From a virus (lineage: Duplodnaviria > Caudoviricetes), in IMG/VR virus record IMGVR_UViG_3300030202_001434, positions 1,233-65,232 of that record: DNA of 64,000 nucleotides. One strand, given 5' to 3'. Of this stretch, positions 2,464-48,121 are shown in pieces. Both the position numbers and the translations under genes were made by a program. The notes under the pieces are model-generated. The model ran no database searches. It worked only from the letters and a program-made list of their open reading frames with translations, and had not been told where the DNA came from. Within the stretch, counting starts at the first letter, position 1, and each line of letters begins with the position of its first letter.

Positions 2464-3049
2464 ATCTAAATCAGTTTTCGAGACATTGAATAGCATCAAT
2501 GTTAGCGATAAGATAGAGAAGAAAGGGAATCTATCTTACTTGTCTTGGGCTTGGGCTTGGGCGGAACTAAAAAAACACTACCCTACATCTACCTATACAA
2601 TCTATGAAAACAATGATGGTTTAAATTATCATCATGATGGAAGGACTGCATGGGTTAAAACAGGAGTTACAATAGACGAAATGGAAAACATTGAGTATCT
2701 CCCTGTAATGAATAACAGAAATAAATCAATTCCTGTGGGACAAATAACATCCTTTGATGTTAATTCTTCAATACAAAGAAGTCTTACCAAAGCTATTGCA
2801 CGACATGGACTTGGCTTATATGTTTATGCGGGTGAAGATCTTCCGCAAGACACTGAACCTGAAAAAACTATAAAACCTAAAAACACAATAACTGAAATTA
2901 CATTAAACGTTAATGATGATAATTGGGAAAAGGTTATGAGGTTTGTAGCTCACAATAAAACAAAAGGGTTGAAGTATATAGTTGATAAACTAAAAACTAA
3001 GTACGACATTAAAGAGGAAATAAAGCAAGAAATAGCGAAACATGTATAG
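2456..3049 (+). CDS. Sak/Rad52-like ssDNA annealing protein (DUF1071-like)
   Basis: LSYLSWAWAW and NSSIQRSLTKAIARHGLGLYVYAGEDLP motifs. Confidence 0.85.
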   Translation: MSKSKSVFETLNSINVSDKIEKKGNLSYLSWAWAWAELKKHYPTSTYTIYENNDGLNYHHDGRTAWVKTGVTIDEMENIEYLPVMNNRNKSIPVGQITSFDVNSSIQRSLTKAIARHGLGLYVYAGEDLPQDTEPEKTIKPKNTITEITLNVNDDNWEKVMRFVAHNKTKGLKYIVDKLKTKYDIKEEIKQEIAKHV

Positions 3050-3788
3050 TTTAAACGCTCCCCTTGATGAAGTTGTAGAGCATCTACAGGATGACTCTAA
3101 ATACTACGGCGAATATGGTAAACAATTTTTATCTAATTCAGATATTAGTAAGTTATTGTACTCTCCTAATGAATTTGGCAAACCTACTCCGAAAACAAAA
3201 GAATTAGTGATGGGTTCGTATTTTCATACTGCAATGTTAGAACCTGATAAATTAAAAACATATGAAATTATAGAGGCTTCTAGTAGAAGTACTAAAATTT
3301 ATAAAGAAAGTGTTCCTGAAGGAGAGTTTTATTTATTACAAAAAGAAGCTGATCAGGTCATGACTTGGGTTGACAAAATGAAATCAAATTTACAAATGTT
3401 TGATTATATTTATGCTGAAGGCAATCAGTATGAACGACCCGCGGTTGATAAAATTATGGGAAATTTTTGGAAAGGTAAAGCTGATATACTTACAGACGAA
3501 TTTATTATTGACATTAAAACCACCACAAAAGTTCATGACTTTAAGTGGAAATGTAATACTTATAATTATGATAGTCAAGCGTACCTTTATCAAAGGTTGT
3601 TTAAACGCCAGATGATTTTTTTCGTAATTGATAAGGATACTCTTCAATTAAAAATCTGCGATTGTTCGCCAGAATTTATAGAAAGAGGTAAAGAAAAAGT
3701 AGAAAAAGCAACACATGAATTCAATTCTTTTTATGGCGAGAACGCGACAAAGAATCCTGAAAACTTTGTTATTCAGGAAACTCTCTAA
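3042..3788 (+). CDS. PD-(D/E)XK exonuclease (RecE/exonuclease VIII-like)
   Basis: LSNSDI, GSYFHTAMLEP, KGKADIL...IIDIKTT, YDSQAYLY motifs; adjacent to annealing protein. Confidence 0.8.
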   Translation: MYSLNAPLDEVVEHLQDDSKYYGEYGKQFLSNSDISKLLYSPNEFGKPTPKTKELVMGSYFHTAMLEPDKLKTYEIIEASSRSTKIYKESVPEGEFYLLQKEADQVMTWVDKMKSNLQMFDYIYAEGNQYERPAVDKIMGNFWKGKADILTDEFIIDIKTTTKVHDFKWKCNTYNYDSQAYLYQRLFKRQMIFFVIDKDTLQLKICDCSPEFIERGKEKVEKATHEFNSFYGENATKNPENFVIQETL

Positions 3789-10059: not shown

Positions 10060-10296
10060 TCTCATCATTAGTTTTTTTGAATGCAACAAATCAGCACATT
10101 TCTCATACTCCTCTAAGTCTTCAAAGTATTCAATTAACTCATCAAACACCTCTTCATAATCATCTATAATATCTTTAGTAGGATCAAATATTAAAGTAAC
10201 TTTTATGTCACGATTTAATAATTGCTCGTACCCAACTTTGTTAGTTATTACATAATAACTTTGTAGCATAAAAGTATGTTCATCGAAATGTTTCAT
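10024..10296 (-). CDS. hypothetical protein with UVR-like C-terminal motif
   Basis: YFEDLEEYEKCADL; last gene of the - strand arm. Confidence 0.6.
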   Translation of the reverse strand: MKHFDEHTFMLQSYYVITNKVGYEQLLNRDIKVTLIFDPTKDIIDDYEEVFDELIEYFEDLEEYEKCADLLHSKKLMMRLEEMSESSHLA

Positions 10297-13200
10297 AAGC
10301 CTAGATCTTTTTCAGTTTGAGATTTTTTCTTTTTATCAGGTCTAAATTCACTCGGCATTTCTTTTAAAGGAATATATGCCGCTTGAACTATAGCATTAAT
10401 TTCTTTTTTACTAAAATTAATCTTTCTTCCCCTAAGTGTTCTTTCTATTTTTTCTGGATCTACCCCTAAAAGCAAAGCGGCTCTAATTTGTTCGTATGCA
10501 TACAAAAAACTTTCTCTTCTTTGCTTGTTTGTTTTTTCATACAACTTAATTAAATCAGCAACTCCCTCCTCTGTAATTTCGTTTTTTCTTATAAAATTTC
10601 TAACATCATTATAATATTCTTTTTCTGCACTCATTTGAGCTTCTCTTTCTGGCTGTAAATTAAAATACAATTGTCTTGAAACATCAACATCATAATCTCT
10701 TTTACCCAAGAGTTTTCCTATTTTAGATTCTGTAAGATTTCTTCCAGACAAGAAACCTTTTCCAAAAGCATCTTCAAGTTGCAACACTGCTCCTGGCAGT
10801 ATAGCTCTTCTTACAAAAGGAACTAAAAAGTCATCAGTAAAGTCACCAGCTTTTCCTTTAGATTTTTTATTTTCCAAAGCATCTACATAAGCTTGAACAA
10901 CAAAATCAGGACTAGCAAATGTTCTTACTTGCTCAACAGCTAACCCTTCTAGCGCATCTTTCCAATTTTTTGACTGTAACAAAACGCTAATATTAGCTTC
11001 TAACAATTGATGCGGATCAAATGTTGATGCGTCTGTAAATTTTAGTCTACCATCTTCAGCTTGAGTTATAATTAGTTTTTGATTTTTTTGCCAATCATAA
11101 ACAAAATTTCTAATCGCCAGTTCCTTAGCTGATAGTTGACCGAAAGTTTGCGCCTCCTCTTCTTCAGGCTCTTCACCTTTAAATCCTAAACCAAATAAAG
11201 GTAAGAATCCTCCTAACACTTTACCGCCTAGTGCAGTGGCAGTGGTATAAAACGCACCATCTCTAAAACCTATATACGACATTATATTAGTTATTTTTCT
11301 AATACCTTCTTTTCTTAATCGTTCTCCTTTTGCTTTATCTGATTTATCTTTAATAAGTTTATTACCTTCTACTATCATATTATAAGCGTTACCCACAGTA
11401 TTGTAAGCTGTTCTATAAGATTCCGCTTGAAAAGAAATAAAGTTACCAGCTAATGGAAATGTTTTAAAAAATCTAGCTAACCCTGGTATTCTTGAATAAT
11501 TTGGATATTGGTTTTTTACCATTTCTGCCGCTTTTTCTTGAACTTCTTTTAACTCATTTTCATTTAAATCCTTTACTTCTTTATTAAACAAAACTTTAGA
11601 TAAGCTTTTTGACTCTTGCTCATAACCCATAATTTTCCAAAAGTCATCTCCTATTCTATAGCTTTTTGCAGCTTTTTTATATAACTTCCCGCCAGTCTTA
11701 CTCCATAAAAAACTAACCAAATTTTTTCTATAACTAGGCTCTTGTGACAATCTTTCAAACATGTCTCGTTCGTTATCAGCCTCATTTAATAAATCTTGTA
11801 ATTCTCTTACATCTACATTCTGATCAATTATACCTAACTTATAATATTCTTCTAACGTTTTAGCTTGCTCTTCACTACTTTTATTATTCCATATAGCTTT
11901 TATACCCTTAGCGGCTTTTACATAACTACCAAAATTTAACTCTCCATTTACAATAGATATAGGAAGATGTCCGTTAGCAATTGCAAAGTTTACGTTTGAT
12001 AAAACGTTTATTAATTGAGTTGAAGGAGATAATATTGTTTTAGCAGCTCTTGGATATGCTACTAAAGCTTTCATATAAAAATCATAGATTCCTCTAGCTA
12101 TTTTAGATTTAGTATCTTTACCTTCAGGTCTTGGAATTAAAGCTGATTTTTTTGGAAACAATGAATTCGCAATATCCGGATAGGTATACAACCCGTCTAA
12201 AGGAGAATAATTTTCATTATCTTTTGATGATATTCTATCCAACCCTTTTCGGTTAGGATCATTTTTGCTAAATATATATTTACCAATTCCATTTTCATAA
12301 ACTGATTGTAAGAAATTAGCACTACTTAAAACTGAACCTACCTTAGTCATTGTTGTTAAGTAATTCGCTACGGGATCCGTAATCTCCCCATAAAGTTTTC
12401 TTATTGGTTCAGGAACTTCTTTTCTTTGTTTTAAAACTTTTAAATCCTTTCCACCACCTGTATATAAATTTAAAAAATCTGTAGCCGAGGTTGGCTCTGC
12501 TAACAGGTCGTCTATTCTAGATTCTACCATTCTATTTAAAGTGTCTTCAAATTTTTCATTAGTCTTTTTAGACTCAGCTTCTACTTCTTTTATAAATTCC
12601 TTATCTTTCTTTATAAAATCTCTAGCTTCTTCTAAAACTTCTTGATCTAAAGTTTCTTTAAATTTATCACCTTTAACCTTTCCTTCAAATAATCTGTAAG
12701 ACCTCGTCACATATTTACCTAATTGACTTTTTATTGTTTCTTTTGCACCTTCTTTAGCTAAATTAGGGGTTTCTAAAACTTGCTGAGACATAGTGTCAAT
12801 ATCTGTTCTCATTTTCGAAACTACTTTTGCAAGTTGTTCGCTTATGTTTTTTATTTCTCCCTTTTTATTTTTAAATACAATATCCTTAGCATCCATTTCA
12901 CCTCTAAGCACCTTACCTAAATCTTCGTTTAATTTTTCTAAAGCTGCTTGATCTAGTTTTTTAGATTTTTTTAATTTTTCAAATAATCTGTTAAATTCTG
13001 TTGCAGTTTTTTCCGCTCTGAATACTATAGCATTATATTGATCACTCTTAGTTTCTTTAGCTTTGAATATACTTTTAGGAATATTACCAGCAGCTTGAAA
13101 AGCTTTTTTAGTGTAACTGTTTATAAAATTTACTGCCTTTGCTATTTTAGGGTTTTTCTTTGAATCTATATTTACTTTTAATCCTTTAAATATTTTAGAT

Positions 13201-15875
13201 AAAATAGGTACAGTAATTTCTGCGTCTCCATCAAGAGAAGTATAACCTTCTTCTCTCTGTGCTTCTTTTACTTCTTGTTCACTTAACCTAGTATCTCTAT
13301 CTAACTTTTCGTTTTCTGTTAACTCTACTTCCTCTTCGGTCTTCGTTTCAGTCTCAGTTTCGGTTTTGGCTTTACTCTCTCCGGTAAGTTCGGAGTCGAG
13401 TACAGGCGACTCCACCTCTTTGCTACTGTCGGTAGATTTTTCATCATCCACCTTCTTTGGGCTTGGCTCTTGAATGGCATCTTTATCTGTTTTAAGTTTG
13501 TCTTGGGTTTCTTTTTTATCTCTATTTACTACTTCGTTTATTTGTTGATCAACATCTTCAATCTTTTTATCTACATCTTCTTTTAATGGGCCTTCTAAAC
13601 CTTCTCTTTGAGATATTAACTGTTGTCTTTGTTGCAATAAGTCAGAAGTCTCTAACATATTATTACTATTGGTAATTGTACCTTTAGTTCTTAGTTCAGC
13701 AGCTTGCATGTCATAAACTTCCTGATAAACATTTTGTCCCTCTTGTGCTGTTATCTCTCCATTTTTTACAAGCTGATCTATAGTGCCTTGAAGATCGTTT
13801 ATATTTGTACCAACGTACCTTAAAGCATCTAGTCTAGTATTTTTGTTTATTAAGGTTTTACTACCTAATGTACCTGTGGCTCCTAATGTTAGTATTACTG
13901 TTTCTAAAATCTCTGCTTTAGATACTTCAGCGCTTCTTACCTCTCTGCCAATATTATAATTTACAGCCGCGTTTACAGCTTTAGTTGAAAATAAAACAGG
14001 AAGCTCTTCAATTAAAGTTTCCCTACTCATTTCTATTCCCAAATCTTTTAACTTTCTTTTTAATTCATCTTTGCTATATTTAGCTCCGTCTTTCTTTACT
14101 ATGTTAATTACCTGCTGTTTAAACCCTGCTAAATTTGACAATACTTTTTGATTCCCGCCAGCTAATCCTGAAAACAATCCATCTAAAGATGCAATAGCAT
14201 TACCAGCCATAATAGCTTTATCCATAGCTTCTTTTTCTGTTAAACCAGCGGCCATTAAATCAGATCTCATACTTTCAACTTCAGCCGCCATAGAACTTCC
14301 GTAAGATGCCAATCCCATTCCTACACCAGGAGATACACCTAGGGTTTTACTTAACCCTTTACCTCCTCTAATTAAACCATATAAGTTTGCTAGAGTTGTG
14401 AAACCAGAGGATATAACTCCTCCTCCATCAAAAAATGTTTCTGTATTTGAAACCTTTTCTGAACGTTCTTGCACCTCTTTGATTAGCTCATCAGAAATTA
14501 TTCCATTCATATTAACATGAGACTTACGATCTAACACTGCGCCGTCAGTTGTAACTATATATTCTTTTCCGTTTACCGTTACTGCCTTACCGTCTATGAT
14601 ACCGCTTCTTTGTACGGGATCTACAAACTGTTCAAAACTTTCTTGTCCATCTAAAAACCTTTCTGTTAATCCAGCCAACAAACCTTTTTGATCAAACCCT
14701 ACAGCTGATAAAGCCTGATCAGCTCCTGAAGTAATAAAAGCTAAACTACCCATTGCAAAATCTGATAAAGCTACAGGTATGGTTTTTAAAACATTACCTA
14801 CCTCAGTCGTTACTTCTCCAACATTGTCTCCTGAATGCGCAGCATCATAAACATTTTTTCTACGCTCTAAATCTCTGTCTTGTGTATACTCTTTTAAAGT
14901 TGGAAATAAATTTGCTAATCCATTTAATTGTTGTAGCTCTTCTATGTACTTAGACTCTAGTTGTCCTTTTATGTTTTGAAGTTGTAATTTATCTACTGGA
15001 TCTGTAGCTAGTTCTAATTTGGTATTAACTAAATTAATATCATCATTTAATTTACCTAACACAGATGCTTTATAACTTGCAATCTTTTCAAAATCTCTTT
15101 GTTCTTTATTAAACGCTTCAGTTTTATCTGTGGTTAAAAGGTTTTTTACCCACTTAAAAGTTTTACTTTCTTCTCTAGTAGTCTCTTCTTCCCACGCTTT
15201 GTAATCATTAGGATCTATTTTTACTCTATCTAGTAACGTTTCCGTTACATCAGTTTCATATCCTTCTGTAGCTTCTCTTTGTTCTTTTGGTTTTAAAATA
15301 GCGGAATCAAAATCTATTTGAGTTTTGTCATTACCTTTATCTACTAAGTAAGTAGCGTAATATCCATCTACAAACTCTTCTTCTGAGCCAAGAAAATCAC
15401 CCCCTTGTCCAGTAGAAGGGTTTCCAAATCGAGCTTGTCTATATAAAGCATCGATGTTTACGTTTTGAGAAATTAAGAATTGTTTTTTTTCGTCAGTAGT
15501 TTTTCCTTCTTCTTCTTCTGTTACAACTACATTTTCAGTTTCAGTTTCTAAAACCTCAGGTATTTCCTCAGGTATTTCCTCTTCTGTTACTTCTGAACCA
15601 ACCAAGGAACCATCTTGTTCTTCCTCGTTCGTACCGAATACCAAATCCTTTTCCAGAACAGATAAGTCGGATTCGTCTTTTTTTTTTAACCCTACATTAG
15701 AGCTCCAAGTATCAATATCACTATCTGTGAAATTATTTTCAAGCAGATATCCATGAACATTTTTTTGTATATCTTCACTGCCCGCAAAATTTGACTTCCA
15801 AGTTTCAAAGTCACTTGTAGTCATTCCATCCTGGGTAAGTTGATTCCAAATGTTTTGTAATATTTCTTCGTTCAT
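10293..15875 (-). CDS. giant internal virion / DNA ejection protein
   Basis: 1860 aa, predicted helical, last of three large genes after the tail genes, as in podoviruses. Confidence 0.65.
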   Translation of the reverse strand: MNEEILQNIWNQLTQDGMTTSDFETWKSNFAGSEDIQKNVHGYLLENNFTDSDIDTWSSNVGLKKKDESDLSVLEKDLVFGTNEEEQDGSLVGSEVTEEEIPEEIPEVLETETENVVVTEEEEGKTTDEKKQFLISQNVNIDALYRQARFGNPSTGQGGDFLGSEEEFVDGYYATYLVDKGNDKTQIDFDSAILKPKEQREATEGYETDVTETLLDRVKIDPNDYKAWEEETTREESKTFKWVKNLLTTDKTEAFNKEQRDFEKIASYKASVLGKLNDDINLVNTKLELATDPVDKLQLQNIKGQLESKYIEELQQLNGLANLFPTLKEYTQDRDLERRKNVYDAAHSGDNVGEVTTEVGNVLKTIPVALSDFAMGSLAFITSGADQALSAVGFDQKGLLAGLTERFLDGQESFEQFVDPVQRSGIIDGKAVTVNGKEYIVTTDGAVLDRKSHVNMNGIISDELIKEVQERSEKVSNTETFFDGGGVISSGFTTLANLYGLIRGGKGLSKTLGVSPGVGMGLASYGSSMAAEVESMRSDLMAAGLTEKEAMDKAIMAGNAIASLDGLFSGLAGGNQKVLSNLAGFKQQVINIVKKDGAKYSKDELKRKLKDLGIEMSRETLIEELPVLFSTKAVNAAVNYNIGREVRSAEVSKAEILETVILTLGATGTLGSKTLINKNTRLDALRYVGTNINDLQGTIDQLVKNGEITAQEGQNVYQEVYDMQAAELRTKGTITNSNNMLETSDLLQQRQQLISQREGLEGPLKEDVDKKIEDVDQQINEVVNRDKKETQDKLKTDKDAIQEPSPKKVDDEKSTDSSKEVESPVLDSELTGESKAKTETETETKTEEEVELTENEKLDRDTRLSEQEVKEAQREEGYTSLDGDAEITVPILSKIFKGLKVNIDSKKNPKIAKAVNFINSYTKKAFQAAGNIPKSIFKAKETKSDQYNAIVFRAEKTATEFNRLFEKLKKSKKLDQAALEKLNEDLGKVLRGEMDAKDIVFKNKKGEIKNISEQLAKVVSKMRTDIDTMSQQVLETPNLAKEGAKETIKSQLGKYVTRSYRLFEGKVKGDKFKETLDQEVLEEARDFIKKDKEFIKEVEAESKKTNEKFEDTLNRMVESRIDDLLAEPTSATDFLNLYTGGGKDLKVLKQRKEVPEPIRKLYGEITDPVANYLTTMTKVGSVLSSANFLQSVYENGIGKYIFSKNDPNRKGLDRISSKDNENYSPLDGLYTYPDIANSLFPKKSALIPRPEGKDTKSKIARGIYDFYMKALVAYPRAAKTILSPSTQLINVLSNVNFAIANGHLPISIVNGELNFGSYVKAAKGIKAIWNNKSSEEQAKTLEEYYKLGIIDQNVDVRELQDLLNEADNERDMFERLSQEPSYRKNLVSFLWSKTGGKLYKKAAKSYRIGDDFWKIMGYEQESKSLSKVLFNKEVKDLNENELKEVQEKAAEMVKNQYPNYSRIPGLARFFKTFPLAGNFISFQAESYRTAYNTVGNAYNMIVEGNKLIKDKSDKAKGERLRKEGIRKITNIMSYIGFRDGAFYTTATALGGKVLGGFLPLFGLGFKGEEPEEEEAQTFGQLSAKELAIRNFVYDWQKNQKLIITQAEDGRLKFTDASTFDPHQLLEANISVLLQSKNWKDALEGLAVEQVRTFASPDFVVQAYVDALENKKSKGKAGDFTDDFLVPFVRRAILPGAVLQLEDAFGKGFLSGRNLTESKIGKLLGKRDYDVDVSRQLYFNLQPEREAQMSAEKEYYNDVRNFIRKNEITEEGVADLIKLYEKTNKQRRESFLYAYEQIRAALLLGVDPEKIERTLRGRKINFSKKEINAIVQAAYIPLKEMPSEFRPDKKKKSQTEKDLGL
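13325..13480 (-). CDS. nested (+1 frame) small basic protein inside the ejection protein gene
   Basis: MPFKSQAQRRWMMKNLPTVAKRWSRLYSTPNLPERVKPKPKLRLKRRPKRK*; A-rich upstream context; host-frame codon usage disturbed over this span. Confidence 0.6.
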   Translation of the reverse strand: MPFKSQAQRRWMMKNLPTVAKRWSRLYSTPNLPERVKPKPKLRLKRRPKRK

Positions 15876-17802: not shown

Positions 17803-18657
17803 TTACTGTCCTAAATATACTGGTGCTGATATTCCTACGCCTGATGAAACAGGAGCAAGTCCAGCTGGCTGGATAGCATTGACAGTAGGAGTTACTATTC
17901 TATTAATAAAGTCAAAATCAAATTGTTCGTTTTTTATTTGTTCCATTATAACTTGTAGTTCTGAACCACTCATACTTTCTAAATTAGGTATTTGTGATAA
18001 CCTATCAATAATAGCACTATCATCTAATCCTTGTAAATTTAATTTTGATTTGTCAGCTGCGGTAATTGAACCTAACAATTTGCCAGCTCTTCTATCCGCT
18101 TTGCTTTTACTGAATGCTGGAACTAAATCAGATGCCGCTCCTGCTACCGCACCAAGACCCTCTACTGCTTGTTGCATACCTTGGCTTTCTAAACGTCTTT
18201 GATCTCTAGCTCTAGCTGACTGATCAGCTGCTGCACCTACATTTATATCTATTAATTGCTGATTAACATTTTGCTTTGCATCAGCTTTCATTTTATTGTT
18301 TTGATATAAAGCTTCACCCATAGCAATACGAGTTTTTTCACCTTGATCAGCAGCCAAAGCGCCAACCCTACCTACACCAGAAGCGACTGCTCTCGCATCT
18401 CCTTCTTGTAGAGCTTGAAGACTTTGTTGTTGTTGTTGTAATTGTTCTTCAAATTGTTTGTTAAAAGCATCTAAAGGAACATTTAGTCCTTCATAAAAGT
18501 TTCTTTCAGCTTTTCTTTCAGCCTCTTTCATTAAGAGCTTTGATTCTCTTTCAGCTTTTGCAGCTGCTCTTCTTGCTTTAGCTGCGTTACCTATACCAAT
18601 ACCCACAGATCCTAGACCTATGGCTGCTGATGTTATTCCTAATGCTAATCCTGACAT
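17803..18657 (-). CDS. putative pilot / ejection protein
   Basis: Gly/Ala-rich hydrophobic N-terminus followed by Ala/Gln-rich helices. Confidence 0.55.
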   Translation of the reverse strand: MSGLALGITSAAIGLGSVGIGIGNAAKARRAAAKAERESKLLMKEAERKAERNFYEGLNVPLDAFNKQFEEQLQQQQQSLQALQEGDARAVASGVGRVGALAADQGEKTRIAMGEALYQNNKMKADAKQNVNQQLIDINVGAAADQSARARDQRRLESQGMQQAVEGLGAVAGAASDLVPAFSKSKADRRAGKLLGSITAADKSKLNLQGLDDSAIIDRLSQIPNLESMSGSELQVIMEQIKNEQFDFDFINRIVTPTVNAIQPAGLAPVSSGVGISAPVYLGQ

Positions 18658-19190
18658 AATAATTTTTTTTTATTAATTACCAATTGAGGTAAATCTTTAT
18701 AATTTAAAGTGTACACATCTTTTTGTGCTTCCTTTATTTCGGTTTTATCAGTGCGATAAACACACACCCATTTACAATCTTCATGCATGTACGCTACTCT
18801 TTGCGTTCCTATCTCTGTCATCACTTTCATAGGAGCTTTTATTCTTTTTACTTCTCCTGCATCTGTTAAGATTGACATCTCGCCTTCTAAAAAAAAAGAA
18901 GGATGGTTTTGCTTATGTATAAAACTCACTACCAAAGAACCTTTAGGCATAAATATTTCTCTAGTATATAAACCATCTTTTAAATCATGCTTTACTGGAA
19001 ACACTTCATCCATAGCGTCTGTACTATGTTCTACTGCTCCATCCACTTGACTTAATTGGTTTCTAAAAGTTTCAATATTTTCCCACAACAAACCTCTGTT
19101 CATATGAACATAATTTAACAAAAGTTCTGGAGAATCTTTTTTTGTAAAAAATTTTCTCACTACTTTTTTTAAACTATTAATTAAGTTCAT
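18645..19190 (-). CDS. cupin-fold protein
   Basis: GLYTREIFMPKGSLVVSFIHKQNHPSFFLEGEMSIL. Confidence 0.6.
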   Translation of the reverse strand: MNLINSLKKVVRKFFTKKDSPELLLNYVHMNRGLLWENIETFRNQLSQVDGAVEHSTDAMDEVFPVKHDLKDGLYTREIFMPKGSLVVSFIHKQNHPSFFLEGEMSILTDAGEVKRIKAPMKVMTEIGTQRVAYMHEDCKWVCVYRTDKTEIKEAQKDVYTLNYKDLPQLVINKKKLLCQD

Positions 19191-19978: not shown

Positions 19979-20929
19979 TTAACAATCCACTACTGATTGT
20001 ACCACACCGCTTGCGTTTACATTATACTTCTGATCGCCACCAACACCACCACTTGTTCTATACCATCCACTAGACAATGTTGTCGTCCCTGAACTATTAG
20101 TGTAACAAGTATCACCAGTTACTGGGTTAGATCCAGATACACCATCATGATAATAGGTAGTATTAACAGTTTCAAAACACGCATTCGGTGATGTTGTTGA
20201 TGTTTGTGATGAACTGTATGAATTATAAGTTGAAGGACAACTTGTAACAGCTGACACTGTACCAGTATTACTTGATATCTGCATATAAGTTCCATTACCA
20301 GTTGTAGATATTTTATAAAATCCATTAGCTAAAAGAGTTGGAGAAGTACCTTCACCTCCAGTTGCCATGCAGGAGTTATCATAACACACATCGTTTACTG
20401 CAGGCAATGAACCTGAACCATCATGATAGTATGTAGCTGATAATGTACCCACTGAACATGCTAACGTAGAAGTAGTTTGAGTTGTGCTACTACTAAACGC
20501 TGTTCCTGTAACAAACGTTCCTACGCTTGCTACTACACCAGAACCACCAGTAATTGAAATATATTGAGTCGCTGATATTTTATAAAATCCATTTCCTAAA
20601 AACGTCTGCCCTGCATCTGAATAACATACATCTGTAGCCACTGGTGTGCTACCAGAACCATTATGAAAATAAGTTTGATTTACTACGCCGTTGTAACAAG
20701 CTGACGGAGCATTGTTATATGCGCTAGAACCACTAAAGGTTGTACATTCACATGTAAACGTAGAGCTTAACACAGGGTTATTAGGCGCACCTGTCTGCTG
20801 TCTAAATGTATTAGAAGATGTTTTATACCAGCCATTTGAAGCCGCCGTTGTTAGTGCCGCATCTGTGTATATGGCTGTAGCGGTTGCAAAGGACGAGGTA
20901 TCTAAATAATAGGTTCCTTGCGTTGGCAT
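19979..20929 (-). CDS. Cys-rich modular virion protein (modules B-A-A-A)
   Basis: Three TY(Y/F)H(N/D)G..P...D.CY repeats after a TYYLD..FATATAIYTD module. Confidence 0.7.
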   Translation of the reverse strand: MPTQGTYYLDTSSFATATAIYTDAALTTAASNGWYKTSSNTFRQQTGAPNNPVLSSTFTCECTTFSGSSAYNNAPSACYNGVVNQTYFHNGSGSTPVATDVCYSDAGQTFLGNGFYKISATQYISITGGSGVVASVGTFVTGTAFSSSTTQTTSTLACSVGTLSATYYHDGSGSLPAVNDVCYDNSCMATGGEGTSPTLLANGFYKISTTGNGTYMQISSNTGTVSAVTSCPSTYNSYSSSQTSTTSPNACFETVNTTYYHDGVSGSNPVTGDTCYTNSSGTTTLSSGWYRTSGGVGGDQKYNVNASGVVQSVVDC

Positions 20930-28570: not shown

Positions 28571-29566
28571 TTACGTTTGTATTTGGTTATTTTCTACTTC
28601 TTCTTGTTTTCCAAACTGATACAAATCACCTTCTCTAATTTCTATACCTATGTATTGACAAATCTTTGCTACAATACCAGGTTCGTCAGACAAGGGTAAT
28701 TCAAAGTCTTGGTAATCTGCTTGATTTATATCAAACAAAGGTTCTCCCGAAGCAAGTGTTTGATACGTCCATTTTGGTGGTAATGGATAACGAACATATT
28801 CTGCTGTTACACTACCGTTAGTTGTTATAGTTATAGGATACACTGTTATTGTATTTCCTAATTGTCCTGTATTAGAATCACCTATTACAGATGAGGTTGC
28901 TCCTCCCAGCACATACGCAGGAAATCCTGTAGATGGTGCTGTTAATGGTGAGTTGTTTAAATAAAATATCTTATTCTGATTAACTCTTTCTACTTCTACA
29001 ATACCACTTGTAGAAAATATTCCATAAGTATTACCAATAGTTGCAGCTACACCAAATGGTGAGTAAGATAATGTTAATTGAGTTTGACTATCAACACTTA
29101 CTACAAAACCACTGAAGCCTGAGTAACTTGATGTAGAAGATGTGTTAACTACTTGTTGACCAACTTTAACACCGCTTGTTACGAACGTAGCGTTCGCATC
29201 AGTTAAAGTGTTTAAACCAGCTGCTGTGCTAGTTCCAGATGTAATTTGTGTTGGATAATAGTTTACTTTATTTATTAAATAATAATCACTTGGTAATTTA
29301 AATAAATTATTACCTTGTTGAGCTAAACTTCTTGTAACAGAAAAACTATCCATTACTTCTACTAAACCTTTTACTATATCAGCATATCCAGTTCCAGATA
29401 GTCTTTGGTTTTCTTTATTAGTCCAAGCATTATATTGATAAAAATAATCTTCAAACAAATCCATTTGAGCTTGTTGAGCGTACAAATTAAAATCTTGCGG
29501 AGATATATATCCGTAATTATTTTTATTAGCTATAGCTAGGACAGTATTTCTAACAGAGTTAATCAT
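28571..29566 (-). CDS. tail tubular/ring protein
   Basis: NKNNYGYISPQDFNLYA, LPSDYY, YVRYPLPPKW, DFELP. Confidence 0.65.
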   Translation of the reverse strand: MINSVRNTVLAIANKNNYGYISPQDFNLYAQQAQMDLFEDYFYQYNAWTNKENQRLSGTGYADIVKGLVEVMDSFSVTRSLAQQGNNLFKLPSDYYLINKVNYYPTQITSGTSTAAGLNTLTDANATFVTSGVKVGQQVVNTSSTSSYSGFSGFVVSVDSQTQLTLSYSPFGVAATIGNTYGIFSTSGIVEVERVNQNKIFYLNNSPLTAPSTGFPAYVLGGATSSVIGDSNTGQLGNTITVYPITITTNGSVTAEYVRYPLPPKWTYQTLASGEPLFDINQADYQDFELPLSDEPGIVAKICQYIGIEIREGDLYQFGKQEEVENNQIQT

Positions 29567-32375: not shown

Positions 32376-33518
32376 TTAACTTTTTTTAATACTTCTAATT
32401 CTGAGTCCTCTTCCACTATCAACTTTTCCTACGGGCCTTATTTTCATACCGTTTTTTGTAACGGCTTGAGGAGCCTGTCTCATTTCCATATTAATGTTTT
32501 TAGATTTTCTAGTAACATTATCTACAGCGCTTGAAACACCTTGTTCATAAAAAAACTGAGCAAATTTCTCTGGGTTCATTGCAACAGACAAAGCTTTGTG
32601 ATATCCCTGTGCGTCTGCAATTAAACCTTTATCATCCATGTACTTATTAATAAAATTACCAATGTCTTTTTGTACATTTTTAATTTCTTCAGCAGTACCT
32701 GGCTTGTAAGTAAAATTATTTTCACCAACTTTGAAATCAAAACCTTTGAATTCATTGTTAAAAACCTCATTGGTTTTATTTAAGAAATAATCATACCTCT
32801 TGTCGTTTTGCTCTTTGATAGATTTAGATTCATCAAGATAACTTTGATAAGCATTTAAATTTTCTTTTTGATCAGCAGACAACCCATCCCCACTTGACTC
32901 AAGAGGAACTTTATATTTATCTTTTTGTTCATTCAAAAACTTTTTAGCTTTCGCAAGTTCTCGTTTTTTTGCTAGTTTGATTTTCTTAATATCCTTAGGA
33001 TCATCAACTTCTTCATCAAAATCAAATTTATCTTCAATAATATCTTGAATATCTATTGCGTCTAAACCTTCTTCTGTTGCAGAATAATAACTAGCGAGTA
33101 CAGAGTTGTCGTCCATAGAATCATAATCTCTTTGTAAATTATAGAAATCTTTAATTCCACGCCCGGTTTCCTTTTTGTACTCTAAATACTTAGATACGTC
33201 TTCCGGCAACGGTTCGTTTGCCTCTTTTTCCGCAAACAGTTCATCCACCGATTTTATATCCTTGTTATATCTATCTTTAATATAAGAAAGAACGTTGTCA
33301 TCATTTAACTCTAATGACGGAGTTTTATCTTCAACAGCTGGTTCACTTTTTTCAAGCTCAACAGCTGGAGTTTCTTCTTTTACCTCAACCTTTTCCGGTG
33401 CATCTTCTTTTGCTGGTTGATCTTCAAACTTTTCTTCATGCTTTTTTAGAAGTTGCTCTTCTATTTCAGCTGTGGATTTTTCTTCGACTAATCCTAAGTC
33501 TTTTACTTTTATTTCCAT
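32376..33518 (-). CDS. putative capsid scaffolding protein
   Basis: Acidic helical protein between portal and capsid genes. Confidence 0.65.
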   Translation of the reverse strand: MEIKVKDLGLVEEKSTAEIEEQLLKKHEEKFEDQPAKEDAPEKVEVKEETPAVELEKSEPAVEDKTPSLELNDDNVLSYIKDRYNKDIKSVDELFAEKEANEPLPEDVSKYLEYKKETGRGIKDFYNLQRDYDSMDDNSVLASYYSATEEGLDAIDIQDIIEDKFDFDEEVDDPKDIKKIKLAKKRELAKAKKFLNEQKDKYKVPLESSGDGLSADQKENLNAYQSYLDESKSIKEQNDKRYDYFLNKTNEVFNNEFKGFDFKVGENNFTYKPGTAEEIKNVQKDIGNFINKYMDDKGLIADAQGYHKALSVAMNPEKFAQFFYEQGVSSAVDNVTRKSKNINMEMRQAPQAVTKNGMKIRPVGKVDSGRGLRIRSIKKS

Positions 33519-33567: not shown

Positions 33568-36003
33568 TTATCTTGGCTCAAACTCTGCTAGATCAAAACC
33601 ATCTAGACTGTCTTCGTTTGATTCGAAATTAATAGGAGGTAAGTTGTTTTTCCTCTGTTCTATTAATTTAGACTGCTCAGTAGACTGTTGGCTAATTCTT
33701 CTGTCTTTCGCTTTTTCTCTTTGATCTTCTCTTTCTTGTAAGCCTGCTTGCTCCACACCTTTCAGCTGCATTTGGAATTCAAACTCCGTTTGCATAAGTT
33801 GTCGTTTAAGTTCAGCTTCATTTTTAAGTTTTTCAATTTCAAAAGCCACATCAGCTTGTCTATACTGAATCTTAGCCTGAGACTCCATTTGTATTTTTTG
33901 CATCTCACCTTGAGCCTTAGCTTGTTGTGCTTGCATTTGCATTTGAGCTTGCATTTGCTGCTCTTGTTGTCTTTGCTGTTGTTCAGCTTCTTGTTTCTTC
34001 TTACGTTTTAATTTAAGAAGTTGATTTGCCATTTTAAGATTATTAAGCTCTCTGATATCAATAGCATCTTCTAAACTTATATCTTTTTGAGATAACGCCA
34101 TTTGAATGTTTTGTTCAAGCATTGCCTTCTCTTCTTCGTCTGGAGCCATCTCTATAAAAATACCAAAGTCATACATATATAAATCTTTGATGTCTTCTAA
34201 TATTTTTAAATTATACTTACCTATCTGCATAGCGAATTCATCTTTAAAATCAGCATATTGTAAAATATCAGCAGTTCTAATTGATAAACATTCTGCAATA
34301 GTTCTAGTTATATATAAACTTCCTTGAAGAATATGTCTCGTAGCTGTGTTTGAATTTAATGCAGCTAATTTCTGTACACCAACTAATGAATTAGGATCTG
34401 GAGTTGAACCATCTCTAGCTTCGTTGAGTCCAGTCACTGCTCTAATCATATCTAAGTAATGATTGTAATTAGCAATAAGCATTTGCATTTTACTAGCTCC
34501 ACTATTTGAGGTTAGTTGCTGTATTGGAACTCTAGCGTTGTTAAACTCTCCATCCTGTGTGTAACTTCTCCCTACAACGCTACCTGTTTGAAAATATAAT
34601 CGTAATGCGTCTTCTGGATTGTAAGCATTTCCAGTTCCTAGATCCACTTCATTTAATCCGTCAGCATCTATAAACACACCGTCTGGAACAACTCTTGATA
34701 CTACTTGCTGAATTTTTAAATGAGTCATTTGTATTAAATCAGCAAAAGGAATCATTCTTCTTACTAGAGATTCTAAACCACCTTTGTACATTCTTGGAGC
34801 AGCTGCTACATAATTAGGCATAGCAAACTGATTAGAAGATTTAGGTCTAACCATATTTTCAGACAACTCCCATTTTAATAAAATGTTAGTTCCCATAACC
34901 ATCACACCATCATACCATACATCAATCTTTTTTTCCACTCTTTCAAAATTTCCTTCTTCCATCATTTCAGCTGGTGGATTAAACTGATCATCTTTCTCTA
35001 CAGTTTTATATGTGCCGTCAGCTAGTCTTTTTCTTTTATAAACAAAGGAGTGTGTTGTTTTGTAGTTAAAATATAATAATGTTGCAGTGTCTCTGTAAAA
35101 CATACTGTTTTCGTAAAACTGCGATGTGTTAAAATAATTATACCATGATTGACTGTATTTTGCTATTTGATTTAAATCCTCATTTGTTAATGAAGGATCT
35201 ATTTTTACAAGCTCAGTCATAGGTACAGTTTTAATCTCGCCCCAATAAAAACAATCTTTAAAATATGGATCTTCAGTATAGCTATATACTACATTAGCAG
35301 GATCTACATAATCTAGTTTTACTCCTGCTCCTTTCAAAAACTCATGTTTAGTTATACCAATACCTATAGTAGCTAAATCATAATCTACTCTGCTTCTAAT
35401 ATCATTATAATGATTTTCAGCCATCAAAGTATTGATAGCTTCTTCTTCTGCAATTTCGATAGCAGGCTTATATTTCATATTCATGAACAATTCCATTTCT
35501 TCATCGCTTTCAGGAAGCTCATCTTCATTTGTTTGAAATACATTAATACCAAAGTCAGTTTCTATTTGTTGAAATAAAGGTTTTGCTAAAACTTCACCCT
35601 CGATCATTTCTTGAAACTCATTTCGTTTTTCAGCCGATAATGCATCTTCTGCATAGGCTTTAACTTTAAAAAGTCTGTCAGACATTCCGTTTACCACAAT
35701 GTCTACAAACTTTGGTATTATTGGTACTGGTGACCAGTCAAGATTAAGATAACTTAAATCGCCATCTATTGCTAATTCATTTTTGTATTTTGCTACCGAT
35801 TGCTCTCCTCTTGCATACAAACGTAGCTTCATGAACTCATTCCATTGATTATAAAATCTACAGGAACCATTGTCTCTTCTGAACCATTCGTATTGTATTG
35901 CTTGACCTATCTGCAAACCATACTCCATGGTATCTTTAGTGGAGTCAGAAACAAATTGATCTGGAAATGCAGCAGCCTGTATATCTATTGTTACTTCTTT
36001 CAT
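33568..36003 (-). CDS. portal protein
   Basis: 811 aa following terminase; PVPIIPKFVDIVVNG, TGLNEARDG; Gln-rich coiled-coil C-terminus. Confidence 0.8.
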   Translation of the reverse strand: MKEVTIDIQAAAFPDQFVSDSTKDTMEYGLQIGQAIQYEWFRRDNGSCRFYNQWNEFMKLRLYARGEQSVAKYKNELAIDGDLSYLNLDWSPVPIIPKFVDIVVNGMSDRLFKVKAYAEDALSAEKRNEFQEMIEGEVLAKPLFQQIETDFGINVFQTNEDELPESDEEMELFMNMKYKPAIEIAEEEAINTLMAENHYNDIRSRVDYDLATIGIGITKHEFLKGAGVKLDYVDPANVVYSYTEDPYFKDCFYWGEIKTVPMTELVKIDPSLTNEDLNQIAKYSQSWYNYFNTSQFYENSMFYRDTATLLYFNYKTTHSFVYKRKRLADGTYKTVEKDDQFNPPAEMMEEGNFERVEKKIDVWYDGVMVMGTNILLKWELSENMVRPKSSNQFAMPNYVAAAPRMYKGGLESLVRRMIPFADLIQMTHLKIQQVVSRVVPDGVFIDADGLNEVDLGTGNAYNPEDALRLYFQTGSVVGRSYTQDGEFNNARVPIQQLTSNSGASKMQMLIANYNHYLDMIRAVTGLNEARDGSTPDPNSLVGVQKLAALNSNTATRHILQGSLYITRTIAECLSIRTADILQYADFKDEFAMQIGKYNLKILEDIKDLYMYDFGIFIEMAPDEEEKAMLEQNIQMALSQKDISLEDAIDIRELNNLKMANQLLKLKRKKKQEAEQQQRQQEQQMQAQMQMQAQQAKAQGEMQKIQMESQAKIQYRQADVAFEIEKLKNEAELKRQLMQTEFEFQMQLKGVEQAGLQEREDQREKAKDRRISQQSTEQSKLIEQRKNNLPPINFESNEDSLDGFDLAEFEPR

Positions 36004-38249
36004 TTATTAAGTAATTGACTTACTGAGTTCTTATTATTATATCTTGCAAAGTTAATGCTTATTTTTGATTGTTTTCTGACGGGAGTGTATAGGTGTTTTT
36101 GATTTGCCATAATTGCTAACCCAGAGCTAATCGCAGCATCAAACTTTGTTCTGTTTGATATATCAAATTTTGCCCAATCTTCTAGTGTTCTTTGAAAATA
36201 CATACTACCTATATCGTCTTTTTCTCTATAACTACCATCAAAATCTAATCCCACATATTTTTCAATATACGACTCAATAGCTGAGGCGTGTGATTGTTTA
36301 ACATCTTCAGAGGTGTTAGGAATACCCCCTAACTCTCTTTCGGTCTTAGATAACTTATTATAAGTTTTATCTGGTCTATTTAAACAAAAGCCTCGGTATC
36401 CTCTATTTTTAAAATGATACAATAAACGAGGTTTATTATTTTCACATAATATTGGCATGCCATAAAAAACACAAGCCATTAAAACTTCTTCAAAAAATAT
36501 CTCCGCAGTTTGTGGTCTCGCTATATATTCTAAAAAAAACTCGTTACTGGGTGCGTCATCCATGTTGAATTTTGTCATCCCATGTAAAGCTCCATTAGAT
36601 CCTTTCCCCACAACTACTCCTGAAATATCATACGAGTCACAACCAAATGAACCGATGTGTTCGTTTCCAGGATACATTCTTCCGTTCTTTACAACTACGT
36701 TATTTTGCAAAGAAGCTTTAGGGATGTAAGTTACGAAAAATCTTCCTCTTTTATTTGGGCTCCAAATAACCTTAGAATCCTTTATACCATTTTGCCAATG
36801 GAAAGAACCTTGAGTTACATAGTGCGCTAAATTTACTGAATCATTATAATCTATTTGTTGATATATTTTAGTTAAATTAAATAACGATTGTTTGCTTTCA
36901 TCTCTAAACGCATGTGACTCAGTTCTAGGAAACTGTCTGTAAAATTCATTTAATGCGTCTGGATCCGAAGCTAATGACTCTACTTCATTTTCCCAATAGT
37001 CCACCGCTCCTTGTGTAATTGGCTCGTTGTCAATACCTTTGATAGGTGTTGTTGGATTTTTAAATACAGGCATCCCATACTTGTCAATAAAACCCTCCAT
37101 ATTCCATTCCATAGGAATAAACAAATTATATAAACCACTTTTTGTTTGTCCGTTAGAGTTTCTGTTTCTACAATCAGACGACTCATATAAATCTTTAAAA
37201 TTTCTACCACCTTTATCTAATGCGTTTGATGTAGATCCCATCATACATTTACCTATGATTTTACTACCTAGTCTTAAACATGTCTTTGTAACACGCCAGT
37301 TGTTTAAAATGTTTTCTGGCCGCTCCCATTTACCACTTTCATCATGTAGTAATAATTGAAGCTTTTCACCATCATAACTGTTGTCTGAAGTATTTTTCCA
37401 GTCAATAGTTGTGTCTAAACCTTCTAACTCTTCTTCGCTCACTGTGTACATATTCTTCTTAGTAATTTTAGAAGCAGGTACACGATATGCTAATTCAGTT
37501 TTAGGTTTATCCATACCATCTTGTATGGGTTTAAAAAAGAAAGGATAGTTGTTTGAAATAGGCACTATCTTATCTGTAAACATTTTTTTTGCATCCGCAC
37601 CAGTCTTAGATAATATACCAATTCTAGAATCTTTAGTTATTGTAGCAGTGTTAACACCTTCGCACGAGCTCATAAATGAAAAACCTGAACGTCTTATTTT
37701 TAAATAACACATTCCAAAACTTCTTTTATCAGCTTTACACGCTTCCCAATAAATATAAAATAAACGATTCGCTTCTCTAAAGTCAGGATGGCCAACATCA
37801 ATCTTAGTCCATTGTAAATACATATAATGTGTTCCGGTTATATAAGTAGGAACACCTTTGTTCATAAACCAGAAACCTTCATCTCTTCTATCAAACTCTT
37901 GCTCGATATAATCTACCCATTTGTTTTTAAACTGAGACGGAGCTTCATGCCACTGAAATATTGACTGTATTCTTTTTAATTCTTTACTAATCTCTTGAGC
38001 TTCCCAATACTGATCTTCTTTCTTTTTTGATCTTGAATAAATTTTAGTAGGTGGTTTAGGTAATGCAATATGTAGGCCATTTATATCAATCACTTGATCT
38101 ATTTGTCCAGATTTTGATATTACAACAAAATTATATTTTTCGTTGTAACCATACTGCCATGTGCGCGCTTTATTCTTAGTAGATAAAACATTTTTAGGAA
38201 CTACCTTGGTTAATGTAGTATATAAGTTATTTAGATCTTGATTCTGCAA
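36000..38249 (-). CDS. terL: terminase large subunit
   Basis: LKIRRSGFS (Walker A-like), LLLHDESGKW (Walker B), MMGST, FGCDSYD nuclease motif. Confidence 0.85.
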   Translation of the reverse strand: MQNQDLNNLYTTLTKVVPKNVLSTKNKARTWQYGYNEKYNFVVISKSGQIDQVIDINGLHIALPKPPTKIYSRSKKKEDQYWEAQEISKELKRIQSIFQWHEAPSQFKNKWVDYIEQEFDRRDEGFWFMNKGVPTYITGTHYMYLQWTKIDVGHPDFREANRLFYIYWEACKADKRSFGMCYLKIRRSGFSFMSSCEGVNTATITKDSRIGILSKTGADAKKMFTDKIVPISNNYPFFFKPIQDGMDKPKTELAYRVPASKITKKNMYTVSEEELEGLDTTIDWKNTSDNSYDGEKLQLLLHDESGKWERPENILNNWRVTKTCLRLGSKIIGKCMMGSTSNALDKGGRNFKDLYESSDCRNRNSNGQTKSGLYNLFIPMEWNMEGFIDKYGMPVFKNPTTPIKGIDNEPITQGAVDYWENEVESLASDPDALNEFYRQFPRTESHAFRDESKQSLFNLTKIYQQIDYNDSVNLAHYVTQGSFHWQNGIKDSKVIWSPNKRGRFFVTYIPKASLQNNVVVKNGRMYPGNEHIGSFGCDSYDISGVVVGKGSNGALHGMTKFNMDDAPSNEFFLEYIARPQTAEIFFEEVLMACVFYGMPILCENNKPRLLYHFKNRGYRGFCLNRPDKTYNKLSKTERELGGIPNTSEDVKQSHASAIESYIEKYVGLDFDGSYREKDDIGSMYFQRTLEDWAKFDISNRTKFDAAISSGLAIMANQKHLYTPVRKQSKISINFARYNNKNSVSQLLNK

Positions 38250-40130: not shown

Positions 40131-40496
40131 TTATTCTTCTTCAACCGGTGGTGGTGGGGCTGGATTATCCCATGTAAAGTATAAGTCTTCATCCACTGGA
40201 TGTTTTTGCAAGTCTATTTGTTTTGATAAACTTACCTCCATATCATTCACAGGTAGCCCATCTTTAAGCCAGCTAATTACTACATTCTCAAACGCTTCGT
40301 CATCAGCGTAAGGAATAAAAGGTGTTGAAGGATCGTACTGTAAAGAATAAGTTCCTATTTGACTAGCGGTATACTGCGGATCTTGGTCGTCTTGAGCGGT
40401 ATACGTCCAATGTACTGTGTAGATTACGTTTTGATTCCCATCTTCTTCGATACGGGCGTTCATTTGATTTATTGTCCATTTATAAAAATTTGCCAT
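40131..40496 (-). CDS. tail fibre-associated small protein, paralog of 47747..48121
   Basis: VIYTVHWTY, FIPY..., VISW; Pro-rich tail. Confidence 0.65.
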   Translation of the reverse strand: MANFYKWTINQMNARIEEDGNQNVIYTVHWTYTAQDDQDPQYTASQIGTYSLQYDPSTPFIPYADDEAFENVVISWLKDGLPVNDMEVSLSKQIDLQKHPVDEDLYFTWDNPAPPPPVEEE

Positions 40497-47746: not shown

Positions 47747-48121
47747 TTACTCTTCAGTAGGTGGTGGTGTTGGTGGGACGGGTTCTGGTGGTGGTGGAGC
47801 CCAAGGCATTTGTGCTTCTTCATTTTTTGGTGTTATTTGATTGTTTATTTCTTTAGCAACAACCACTTGTGGGTGATCCCAACTAGGATATGTAGCTACA
47901 ACCCATTGTATAACCTCGTCTTCTGTTAAGTCTTGTAAAGGAACAAAACTTGAAGGATCAGGTGCGCCCACAGGAATTGATCCTTTAAACGTTCCTGAAT
48001 ATCCTGAATCTGAATCAGTGCCAATGTAATCAAATTTAACTACAGTGACTACATCAGTTAAACTATCTAATGACGGAGCCATTAGCATACTTGTTATTTT
48101 ATAAGAGTAAGTTACATTCAT
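47747..48121 (-). CDS. tail fibre-associated small protein
   Basis: DVVTVVKFDYIG, FVPLQDLTEDEVIQWV; poly-Pro tail. Confidence 0.65.
   Translation of the reverse strand: MNVTYSYKITSMLMAPSLDSLTDVVTVVKFDYIGTDSDSGYSGTFKGSIPVGAPDPSSFVPLQDLTEDEVIQWVVATYPSWDHPQVVVAKEINNQITPKNEEAQMPWAPPPPEPVPPTPPPTEE

Follow-up and report, generated by a model that had tools for sequence, protein, structure and literature searches.

A 51-codon gene probably embedded in the linker of a giant virion-protein gene of an uncultured marine phage

Is a 51-codon open reading frame (ORF) that lies entirely inside a giant phage gene a gene in its own right, or an accident of the sequence around it? The question arises in a 64,000-nt stretch of uncultured-virus DNA (hereafter the window; positions 1,233 to 65,232 of IMG/VR record IMGVR_UViG_3300030202_001434), whose source record is a complete sequence of 65,232 bp with direct terminal repeats. 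A reading of the letters alone (hereafter the sequence-only reading) had proposed a 51-amino acid (aa) gene in the +1 frame at 13325-13480, preceded by an A-rich region, richer in GC than its surroundings and overlying a low-complexity acidic linker of the host protein. All of these descriptions held. The ORF runs from ATG to TAG (51 codons plus TAG) at 13325..13480 on the minus strand, wholly within a same-strand ORF of 1860 aa (10293..15875), and (15875-13480) mod 3 = 1 places it in the +1 frame of its host. Its product is MPFKSQAQRRWMMKNLPTVAKRWSRLYSTPNLPERVKPKPKLRLKRRPKRK by translation, and the host frame reads across it as DAIQEPSPKKVDDEKSTDSSKEVESPVLDSELTGESKAKTETETETKTEEEV, beginning DAIQEPSPKKVDDEK and ending TETETETKTEEEV. 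The 25 nt upstream of the nested ATG are A-rich, and compared with 453 sliding 156-nt intervals across the giant gene the embedded span has the highest GC content (0.481, against a whole-gene value of 0.327); the acidic linker is borne out by translation, alignments of relatives and a structural model, as described below. We estimate a probability of about 0.82 that this ORF is a genuine protein-coding gene embedded at +1 in a giant virion-protein gene.

A family of small basic proteins

We first consider what the encoded peptide resembles. The sequence-only reading had likened it to small phage proteins that are usually encoded by free-standing genes and had named a homology search as a check, and both the resemblance and the check were upheld. 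Searching 1.84 billion representatives with phmmer returned 60 at E ≤ 0.001, led by a protein of 51 aa (E = 5.4e-14), and the matches began at residue 1 in 55 of the 60. A database search with the same peptide gave small proteins for 129 of 154 candidates at E ≤ 10. These small relatives have the same ends as the window peptide (MPFKSxAQRR...LPERVKPKPK, plus a basic tail), and all 10 first residues as well as LPERVKPKPK are common to the window peptide and free-standing proteins. At least 263 relatives were confirmed among 600 pattern matches in viral contigs, and 137 among 383 pattern matches in genome contigs (one genome per prokaryotic species).

We then aligned the family (alignments A1 and A2) and took invariant columns from the 80 sequences of A2. 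M1, P2 and S5 were invariant, and F3, A7, Q8, P17, A20, W23, L32 and P33 were conserved in at least 90% of the sequences. The window peptide, starting MPFKSQAQ, fits the family N terminus (M-P-[FY]-[KR]-S-x-A-Q) and has all of the core positions (P17, A20, W23 and the L32-P33 of an LP.R[VL] motif). It is built from an N-terminal module (MPFKSxAQRRWM..P..AKRW), the LPERV motif and a Lys/Arg/Pro tail that is rich in Lys and Arg (KPKPKLRLKRRPKRK), and its 51 aa lie within the family length of ~40-65 aa. A PHROGs v4 family of unknown function, phrog_1375, matched 30 of the 80 members (best E = 1.5e-6) and 7 of 10 longer relatives over their first ~30 residues. The window peptide is not itself recognised by the PHROG model and is tied to phrog_1375 through its family, as the member matches indicate. 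Homology places the peptide in a family of small basic phage proteins that is widespread and uncharacterised.

Among cultured phages, neither megablast with the giant gene nor tblastn with the peptide found a match, and tblastn with the relative P0156 gave weak matches only, including gp48 of Streptomyces phage FlowerPower and gp9 of Mycobacterium phage Barnyard, both annotated as hypothetical. Our search of the literature, supplements aside, found nothing on the family or on the nested arrangement. The small family DUF3008 (PF11450) has a similar N-terminal 'MP.KS.AQ'-like start and is the nearest Pfam-bearing cluster in a protein atlas (0.85, 37% of members). Membership of DUF3008 was rejected, with 0 of the 80 members matching at E ≤ 1, and in five genomes carrying a cellular subfamily the PF11450 model did not match the family genes. 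This high-GC cellular subfamily (L112, L128, L130 and L134-L189) reads MPFKSxAQRRKFAELLVxGxIS..TFEEWNRETG..LPERVKPK with a long Lys/Arg/Ala/Thr tail, and was found in metagenome-assembled genomes (MAGs) labelled Gemmatimonadota, Acidobacteriota, Chloroflexi and Burkholderiales, on contigs of which some are Mb-size. Its gene neighbours are heterogeneous (MBL hydrolase, ADH, DUF2255, DNA ligase) and gave no functional lead.

Host linker, gene position and selection in the two frames

The host gene (10293..15875, minus strand) is the last gene of a late minus-strand operon, and aa 1046-1502 of its product match phrog_22602, 'virion structural protein' (E = 2.5e-29). We divided the giant protein into two modules. 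The N module (aa 1-805; 13461..15875, minus strand), delimited by identity to relatives and by an AlphaFold2 (AF2) model, is predicted to close with a long helix immediately ahead of the embedded gene, and is 49-52% identical to the N-terminal parts of giant ORFs in L023, L032 and L096-L107. The C module (~aa 865-1860; 10293..13283, minus strand) carries the phrog_22602 match and shares 23-28% identity with giant structural proteins from three Cellulophaga phages (phi13:2, phi18:3 and phi19:3) and from Pelagibacter phage HTVC027P. The distant Cellulophaga phage relatives are annotated as virion structural proteins; the putative label of 'ejection protein' for the host takes its basis from just these annotations and the PHROG match.

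Between the modules lies the host-frame linker (~aa 799-864; 13284..13481, minus strand), which overlies the small gene and is acidic, Ser/Thr-rich, hypervariable and predicted to be coil. In alignments of giant proteins the N module ends in ...LEGPLKE..D.KI.DVD.QI..., followed by a lineage-specific spacer and then by the C module, and the linkers of relatives are indel-rich and non-homologous, differing in length and sequence from lineage to lineage. An AF2 model of aa 640-1010, built on a shallow alignment, placed a helix at fragment residues 124-161 and coil at residues 162-225 (aa 801-864; pLDDT < 50, mean pLDDT 49). As judged from these alignments and this prediction, the overlap falls where the giant protein tolerates almost any sequence, in a disordered acidic spacer.

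We then examined relatives chosen by their host gene. The giant protein as query recovered 7 viral loci, of which 4 (L001-L004) align across the region, with host identities of 84, 57, 89 and 42% and embedded-peptide identities of 73-92%. Conservation of the +1 ORF, the other check named by the sequence-only reading, was found in 4 of 4 of these closer relatives: each has an intact 51-codon ORF with its ATG, its stop and the +1 offset, inside stop-to-stop ORFs of 1911-2115 codons. In one locus peptide identity is still 75% at a host identity of only 42%. The linker around the small gene is hypervariable, yet the 51 codons are free of indels in the window and in L001-L004. The three distant loci from this search (25-27% identity, C module only) were without the embedded ORF. 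A second survey, with an N-module profile (A3), gave 16 loci, 6 of them contigs already among the earlier loci and 10 new. Each of the 11 loci whose giant ORF is complete had exactly one family copy, nested at +1 in 6 of them and beginning 2-5 nt past the giant stop in the other 5; the 5 loci cut at a contig end had a nested copy in 1 case and none in 4. The nested copies of L096, L097 and L107 start MPIQS, which placed them outside the reach of our pattern-based search. Across the contigs compared, the family member of this phage lineage is always tied to the giant gene, either inside its linker or just past its stop.

To the host-selected loci we added relatives picked by similarity to the small protein, and counted arrangements in 85 copies (84 loci plus the window), a biased sample consisting of the best 80 of at least 263 small-protein matches together with L001-L004. 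Nested copies made up 44 of the 85, all at +1 and none at +2; giant hosts carry 38 of them, and the other 6 lie close to where ORFs of ~340-420 aa have their 5' end. Another 20 copies are terminal, beginning -1 to 39 nt from the stop of an upstream ORF of at least 300 aa (at least 1400 aa in 13 of the 20), and 21 copies are free. Giant ORFs with a terminal copy have an N module 49-52% identical to that of the window. The giant proteins of L097 (copy nested at aa 781 of 1955) and L103 (copy terminal) are 78% identical end to end and their small peptides are much more diverged; the L103 linker holds no trace of the small gene, and nothing lies downstream of the giant stop in L097. On this comparison the single copy has changed place between two closely related phages, and recombination within the hypervariable linker or close to it is the probable cause. 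A peptide tree (78 sequences, 51 columns) had little resolution.

Nesting of another kind was seen in L036, L039, L051 and L058 (also L062 and L081), where members of 41-48 aa sit at +1, 42-58 codons into ORFs of ~340-420 aa of unknown function, with a clade support of 98. GenBank record MW202828.1 (L093, 'Podoviridae sp. ctfjg026') has an unannotated 43-aa member at +1 inside an annotated coding sequence of 3859 aa, which is a giant phage virion gene; its product name, 'reticulocyte binding/rhoptry protein', looks like a spurious transfer.

To ask which frame is under constraint, we compared substitutions in both. In the host-selected set (window and L001-L004; 5 sequences, aligned without gaps over 51 codons) the variable sites fell at nested codon positions 1/2/3 in the numbers 21/16/38, with the host third position the least variable. 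Nei-Gojobori pN/pS over codons 1-51 of this set was 0.24 for the nested frame and 1.50 for the host frame. For the large sets we used only codons 9-26, which the search pattern does not cover; the 561 pairs formed by 34 unique nested copies from giant hosts gave 0.37 for the nested and 1.29 for the host frame, and 34 unique free or terminal copies gave 0.37 for the small-gene frame and 1.10 for the other frame. Amino-acid identity in the 5-sequence set was 78% in the nested vs 51% in the host frame, and higher in the nested frame in 10 of 10 pairs; among the 561 pairs the nested peptide was better conserved than the host-frame sequence in 490 and worse in 24. These ratios indicate that purifying selection acts on the small protein, equally in nested and free copies, and that the host frame over the small gene evolves like a non-coding frame that is merely kept open.

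How the host frame is kept open can be read from codon choice. Among 34 unique copies that are free or terminal, 31 have at least one stop in the host-equivalent frame; nested copies have none. T ends 4% of codons in 42 nested copies, compared with 20% in the 34 that are free or terminal and 36% when the giant gene is read in its own frame. Since a T-ending codon before a codon starting with A or G creates TAA, TAG or TGA in the host frame, avoidance of T keeps the host frame open, and the GC peak of the embedded span arises because nested copies avoid T-ending codons. Both signs asked for in a dual-coding test, purifying selection in the inner frame and an outer frame open against expectation, were found, and the avoidance of T indicates that both frames are maintained.

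Translation and rival explanations

How would such a gene be expressed? The leader of the embedded AUG (13481..13505, minus strand) is A-rich and lacks a Shine-Dalgarno (SD) motif. Scored with a position weight matrix built on 42 gene starts of the window (percentiles by leave-one-out), it reached 2.64, which puts it at the 60th percentile of true starts and tenth among the 102 internal ATGs of the giant gene. SD-like 4-mers precede only 4 of the 42 window genes, whose leaders are likewise A-rich. Starts without SD motifs, together with TAnnTTTG-like motifs, are typical of Bacteroidota. TAnnTTTG-like motifs were seen 10-25 nt upstream of the starts of 18645-19190, 28571-29566, 32376-33518, 40131-40496, 44968-47697, 47747-48121 and 53418-54131. 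No such promoter-like motif was found inside the giant gene, which makes the late mRNA of the giant gene the likely template, and the N-terminal position of the module in relatives supports the nested ATG as the true start. We propose that the small protein would be made from this late mRNA by independent initiation at its own AUG, SD-less and with an A-rich leader as for the other genes of the phage. On these comparisons translation from its own AUG is the most likely route, and the ORF is very probably a real, selected and separately translated gene.

Several observations weigh against reading the ORF as a gene. Its length is within the chance range for the window: the +1 frames over 54,270 nt of coding sequence contain 1642 open stretches, 6 of which reach at least 66 codons, and about 5 other M-started +1-frame ORFs of 51-68 aa occur within window genes. 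The start context is not unique, as 9 other internal ATGs of the giant gene outscore the nested one, and a sequencing-run search for the stretch listed no RNA run. No family member was found in 5 records of more distant phages that carry the C module only (complete Cellulophaga phage phi13:2, complete Pelagibacter phage HTVC027P and three IMG/VR relatives). The 80 viral loci picked by small-protein similarity came through an ATG-containing pattern, so that their ATG is there by construction, and the unbiased sets are only the two that were selected by host (giant protein and N-module profile). Could the open frame then be a chance passenger, a by-product of linker composition from which no protein is made? 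ORFs of this length do arise in the +1 frames of this AT-rich genome, and scans of the 51-aa peptide against Pfam, PHROG (E ≤ 10) and NCBIfam gave zero matches. It is the homology and conservation of the ORF, not its length, that exceed chance as far as these comparisons go. The peptide has its first 10 residues and LPERVKPKPK in common with free-standing proteins at the whole-library E value given above, its codon-position pattern and pN/pS track the nested rather than the host frame, and its 51 codons stay free of indels inside a hypervariable linker, which leaves a chance origin scarcely tenable. The longest of the other M-started +1 ORFs measure 68, 68 and 67 aa and lie in 36000-38249, 19979-20929 and 3042-3788, the terminase gene and two others; these ORFs may be chance.

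The remaining alternatives accept the homology and read it differently. The window comes from an uncultured-virus assembly, and indel errors could in principle have joined separate N and C genes across a small gene lying between them; with the host frame continuous in 38 giant-host copies from independent viral contigs, in 6 MAG contigs and in GenBank MW202828.1, and with nested codon usage specifically adapted to keeping that frame open, such an artefact has a practically negligible probability. A silent relic, that is a free-standing gene swallowed by gene fusion and kept unexpressed as a spacer, would suit a host frame that needs only an open disordered stretch, and translation of the nested gene is argued from sequence comparison. 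A relic should drift, yet constraint is the same in nested and free copies (0.37 vs 0.37), and ATG, stop and full length persist in diverged hosts (42% host and 75% peptide identity). There is also exactly one copy, never zero, in all 11 complete giant-gene loci, and the L097/L103 pair implies that one functional copy is retained when position changes; we regard a relic as very unlikely. Programmed frameshifting, which is frequent in phages, could instead yield a product other than a separate protein, by either of two routes. Ribosomes on the giant ORF might slip +1 to make an N-module protein ending in the basic peptide, or ribosomes from the nested AUG might slip -1 to make a polyvalent-like 'module + C-module' protein. 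The geometry fits both routes (nested is host +1, host is nested -1), and a module heading proteins of ~1000 aa is a common architecture (e.g. P0228 and P0240). But in the window and L001-L004 a stop shuts the nested frame at a distance of 1-15 codons before the ATG (1 codon in L002 and L004), the sequence between that stop and the ATG is not conserved, and M1-P2 stays invariant at the N terminus whether relatives are free-standing or fused. Moreover, post-stop copies in related phages stand at differing frame offsets (gaps of -1 to 10 nt, from ORF coordinates), and canonical in-frame heptamers (X_XXY_YYZ) were found in only 5 of 42 nested copies, the window not among them, and in 11 of 34 free or terminal copies, so that frameshifting, too, is very unlikely. 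That slippery heptamers are scarcer in nested copies may mean that slipping towards the host frame is avoided, or may simply follow from codon choice.

A real, separately translated gene also raises the question of which partner came first. The sequence-only reading had called it an overprinted gene, and of this the real, conserved overlap stands and the de novo origin does not. The passages on embedded viral genes in PMC8227390 and PMC3494269 treat overprinting as their usual origin, which counts in favour of the small ORF being a newcomer to an existing giant gene. Such an origin is hardly credible given the family's hundreds of homologues, whether free-standing or fused, among them the cellular subfamily on Mb-size bacterial contigs, and given a host frame that is the unconstrained partner. 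Because free-standing, fused and cellular homologues exist, the small gene is, on homology, the older partner. The locus would then represent a different route to overlap, in which an old small gene sits in the disordered linker of a giant protein, the big gene reads through it and the codon choice of the small gene has been shaped to keep the other frame open. It would also be a real gene missed by ordinary annotation, with the same arrangement in dozens of uncultured marine phage contigs, and the nested and free forms in close relatives offer a good natural test case for methods that detect dual coding.

Known overlapping genes and a possible role for the module

In gene architecture the closest analogue is the Rz/Rz1 pair of phage lambda and relatives, in which Rz1 sits in the +1 frame of Rz. 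As in that pair, a small same-strand gene lies inside a larger one, and related phages have several architectures (here embedded or immediately downstream); two-component spanin genes occur embedded, overlapped or separated, according to the parts of Kongari et al. (2018, PMC6139136) that deal with them. Unlike Rz1, the 51-aa protein has no Cys and so no lipobox, has no signal sequence and is not a lysis gene product; unlike Rz, the host is an 1860-aa virion protein rather than a membrane protein, and the overlap falls in a disordered linker; and unlike spanins, the embedded gene has free-standing homologues far outside its lineage. We rejected an embedded outer spanin (Rz1-like) identity on the lack of Cys and on the host being a virion structural protein. 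The locus also resembles E in D, B in A and K of phiX174 and L of MS2 in that two frames are coded and the inner gene is missed by gene finders. Those inner genes are regarded as de novo and lineage-restricted, whereas here the inner gene is the old and widespread partner and the outer frame the 'new' one, free of constraint.

What might the small protein do? An AF2 model from 80 sequences predicted helices at residues 6-15 and 17-26 followed by an extended basic tail (pLDDT 84). Profile searches with the family found 318 longer proteins at E ≤ 0.001, and among the 120 of these that were listed the module stood at an M1-P2 start in 111. Pfam-confirmed fusion partners are InPase (2 proteins), DUF5661, Phage Mu F (MuF), HU, SNF2 helicase, ADP-ribosyltransferase exoenzyme and SET; matches to SAM-lyase/DUF3293, SprT-like and DnaJ domains each fell just below the cut-off, and the ADP-ribosyltransferase fusion also has a ParB-like stretch judged by eye rather than by a tool match. 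InPase, MuF, ADP-ribosyltransferase (ART), ParB, helicase and peptidase domains occur in multidomain polyvalent proteins, known from phages and from conjugative elements, that are predicted to be packaged and injected, in the passages of Iyer et al. (2017, PMC5512222) on such proteins. Like the polyvalent proteins described in those passages, several relatives head InPase, MuF, ADP-ribosyltransferase or SNF2 domains with the same ~40-aa module; unlike them, the window protein is module plus basic tail and has no enzymatic domain. The free copy in L048 directly follows a portal gene and precedes scaffold and capsid genes, and other free copies sit after giant virion genes.

From composition, gene position and domain fusions we consider a virion-delivered nucleic-acid-binding role possible, though somewhat doubtful. 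The two-helix N-terminal module would mediate virion incorporation or delivery and would need a free N terminus, the Lys/Arg/Pro tail would bind nucleic acid, and the product, made and delivered with the giant protein, would be a small internal component of the virion that associates with DNA. A number of results count against assigning such a function. A fold search with the model of the small protein found nothing in the PDB at E ≤ 0.001, a BFVD fold search returned only uncharacterised family members and no informative neighbour, and a profile search against PDB sequences gave only non-significant matches. The empty domain scans of the peptide bear on function as well, and the sole library match for the family is phrog_1375, itself of unknown function. 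Pfam domains were present on 10 of the 120 longer relatives listed, so that the polyvalent link comes from a minority, and a name for the module was not found in the passages of PMC5512222 covered, which exclude its supplementary domain lists.

A broader version of this role is less likely still and is offered as speculation. The ~40-residue MPFKS module might be a general N-terminal 'boarding pass' for proteins that travel in the capsid and are co-delivered with DNA, the minimal form having a protamine-like tail that rides on the genome, and the disordered linkers of giant virion genes, by tolerating it, might be a general hiding place for small late genes. If true, this would explain why the module must sit at a free N terminus. 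On this reading it would head polyvalent effectors with MuF, InPase, ADP-ribosyltransferase, SNF2, HU and SAM-lyase-like domains, and in this marine lineage the minimal form would be obligatorily coupled to the giant ejection protein. Whatever the role, the survey defines a widespread uncharacterised N-terminal module common to small basic proteins and to polyvalent, probably injected, effectors; should it be a virion-targeting or DNA-binding tag, cargo loading and delivery would become directly testable.

Two further associations of the module were noted. In P0129 (128 aa, a phmmer representative), module residues 1-42 are fused to a full C-terminal domain of translation initiation factor IF-3 (PF00707, E = 1.5e-40; TIGR00168, E = 6.6e-42), a fusion that may come from chimeric gene calling or may point to a ribosomal connection. 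The module also stands beside an ATP-dependent DNA ligase three times (L074:3605-6282, P0218 and L177:5001-5865): in L074 a member of 93 aa begins 17 nt after a ligase-like ORF, in P0218 the module follows in frame after a ligase-like stretch (KxDG motif, by eye), and in L177 a ligase domain comes after a cellular member. Elsewhere in the window, three large tail-fibre-like genes (40531-43992, 44968-47697 and 48135-51902) have a C-terminal domain matching phrog_9942, 18345, 5668 and 8215, which suggests that they encode paralogous receptor-binding proteins.

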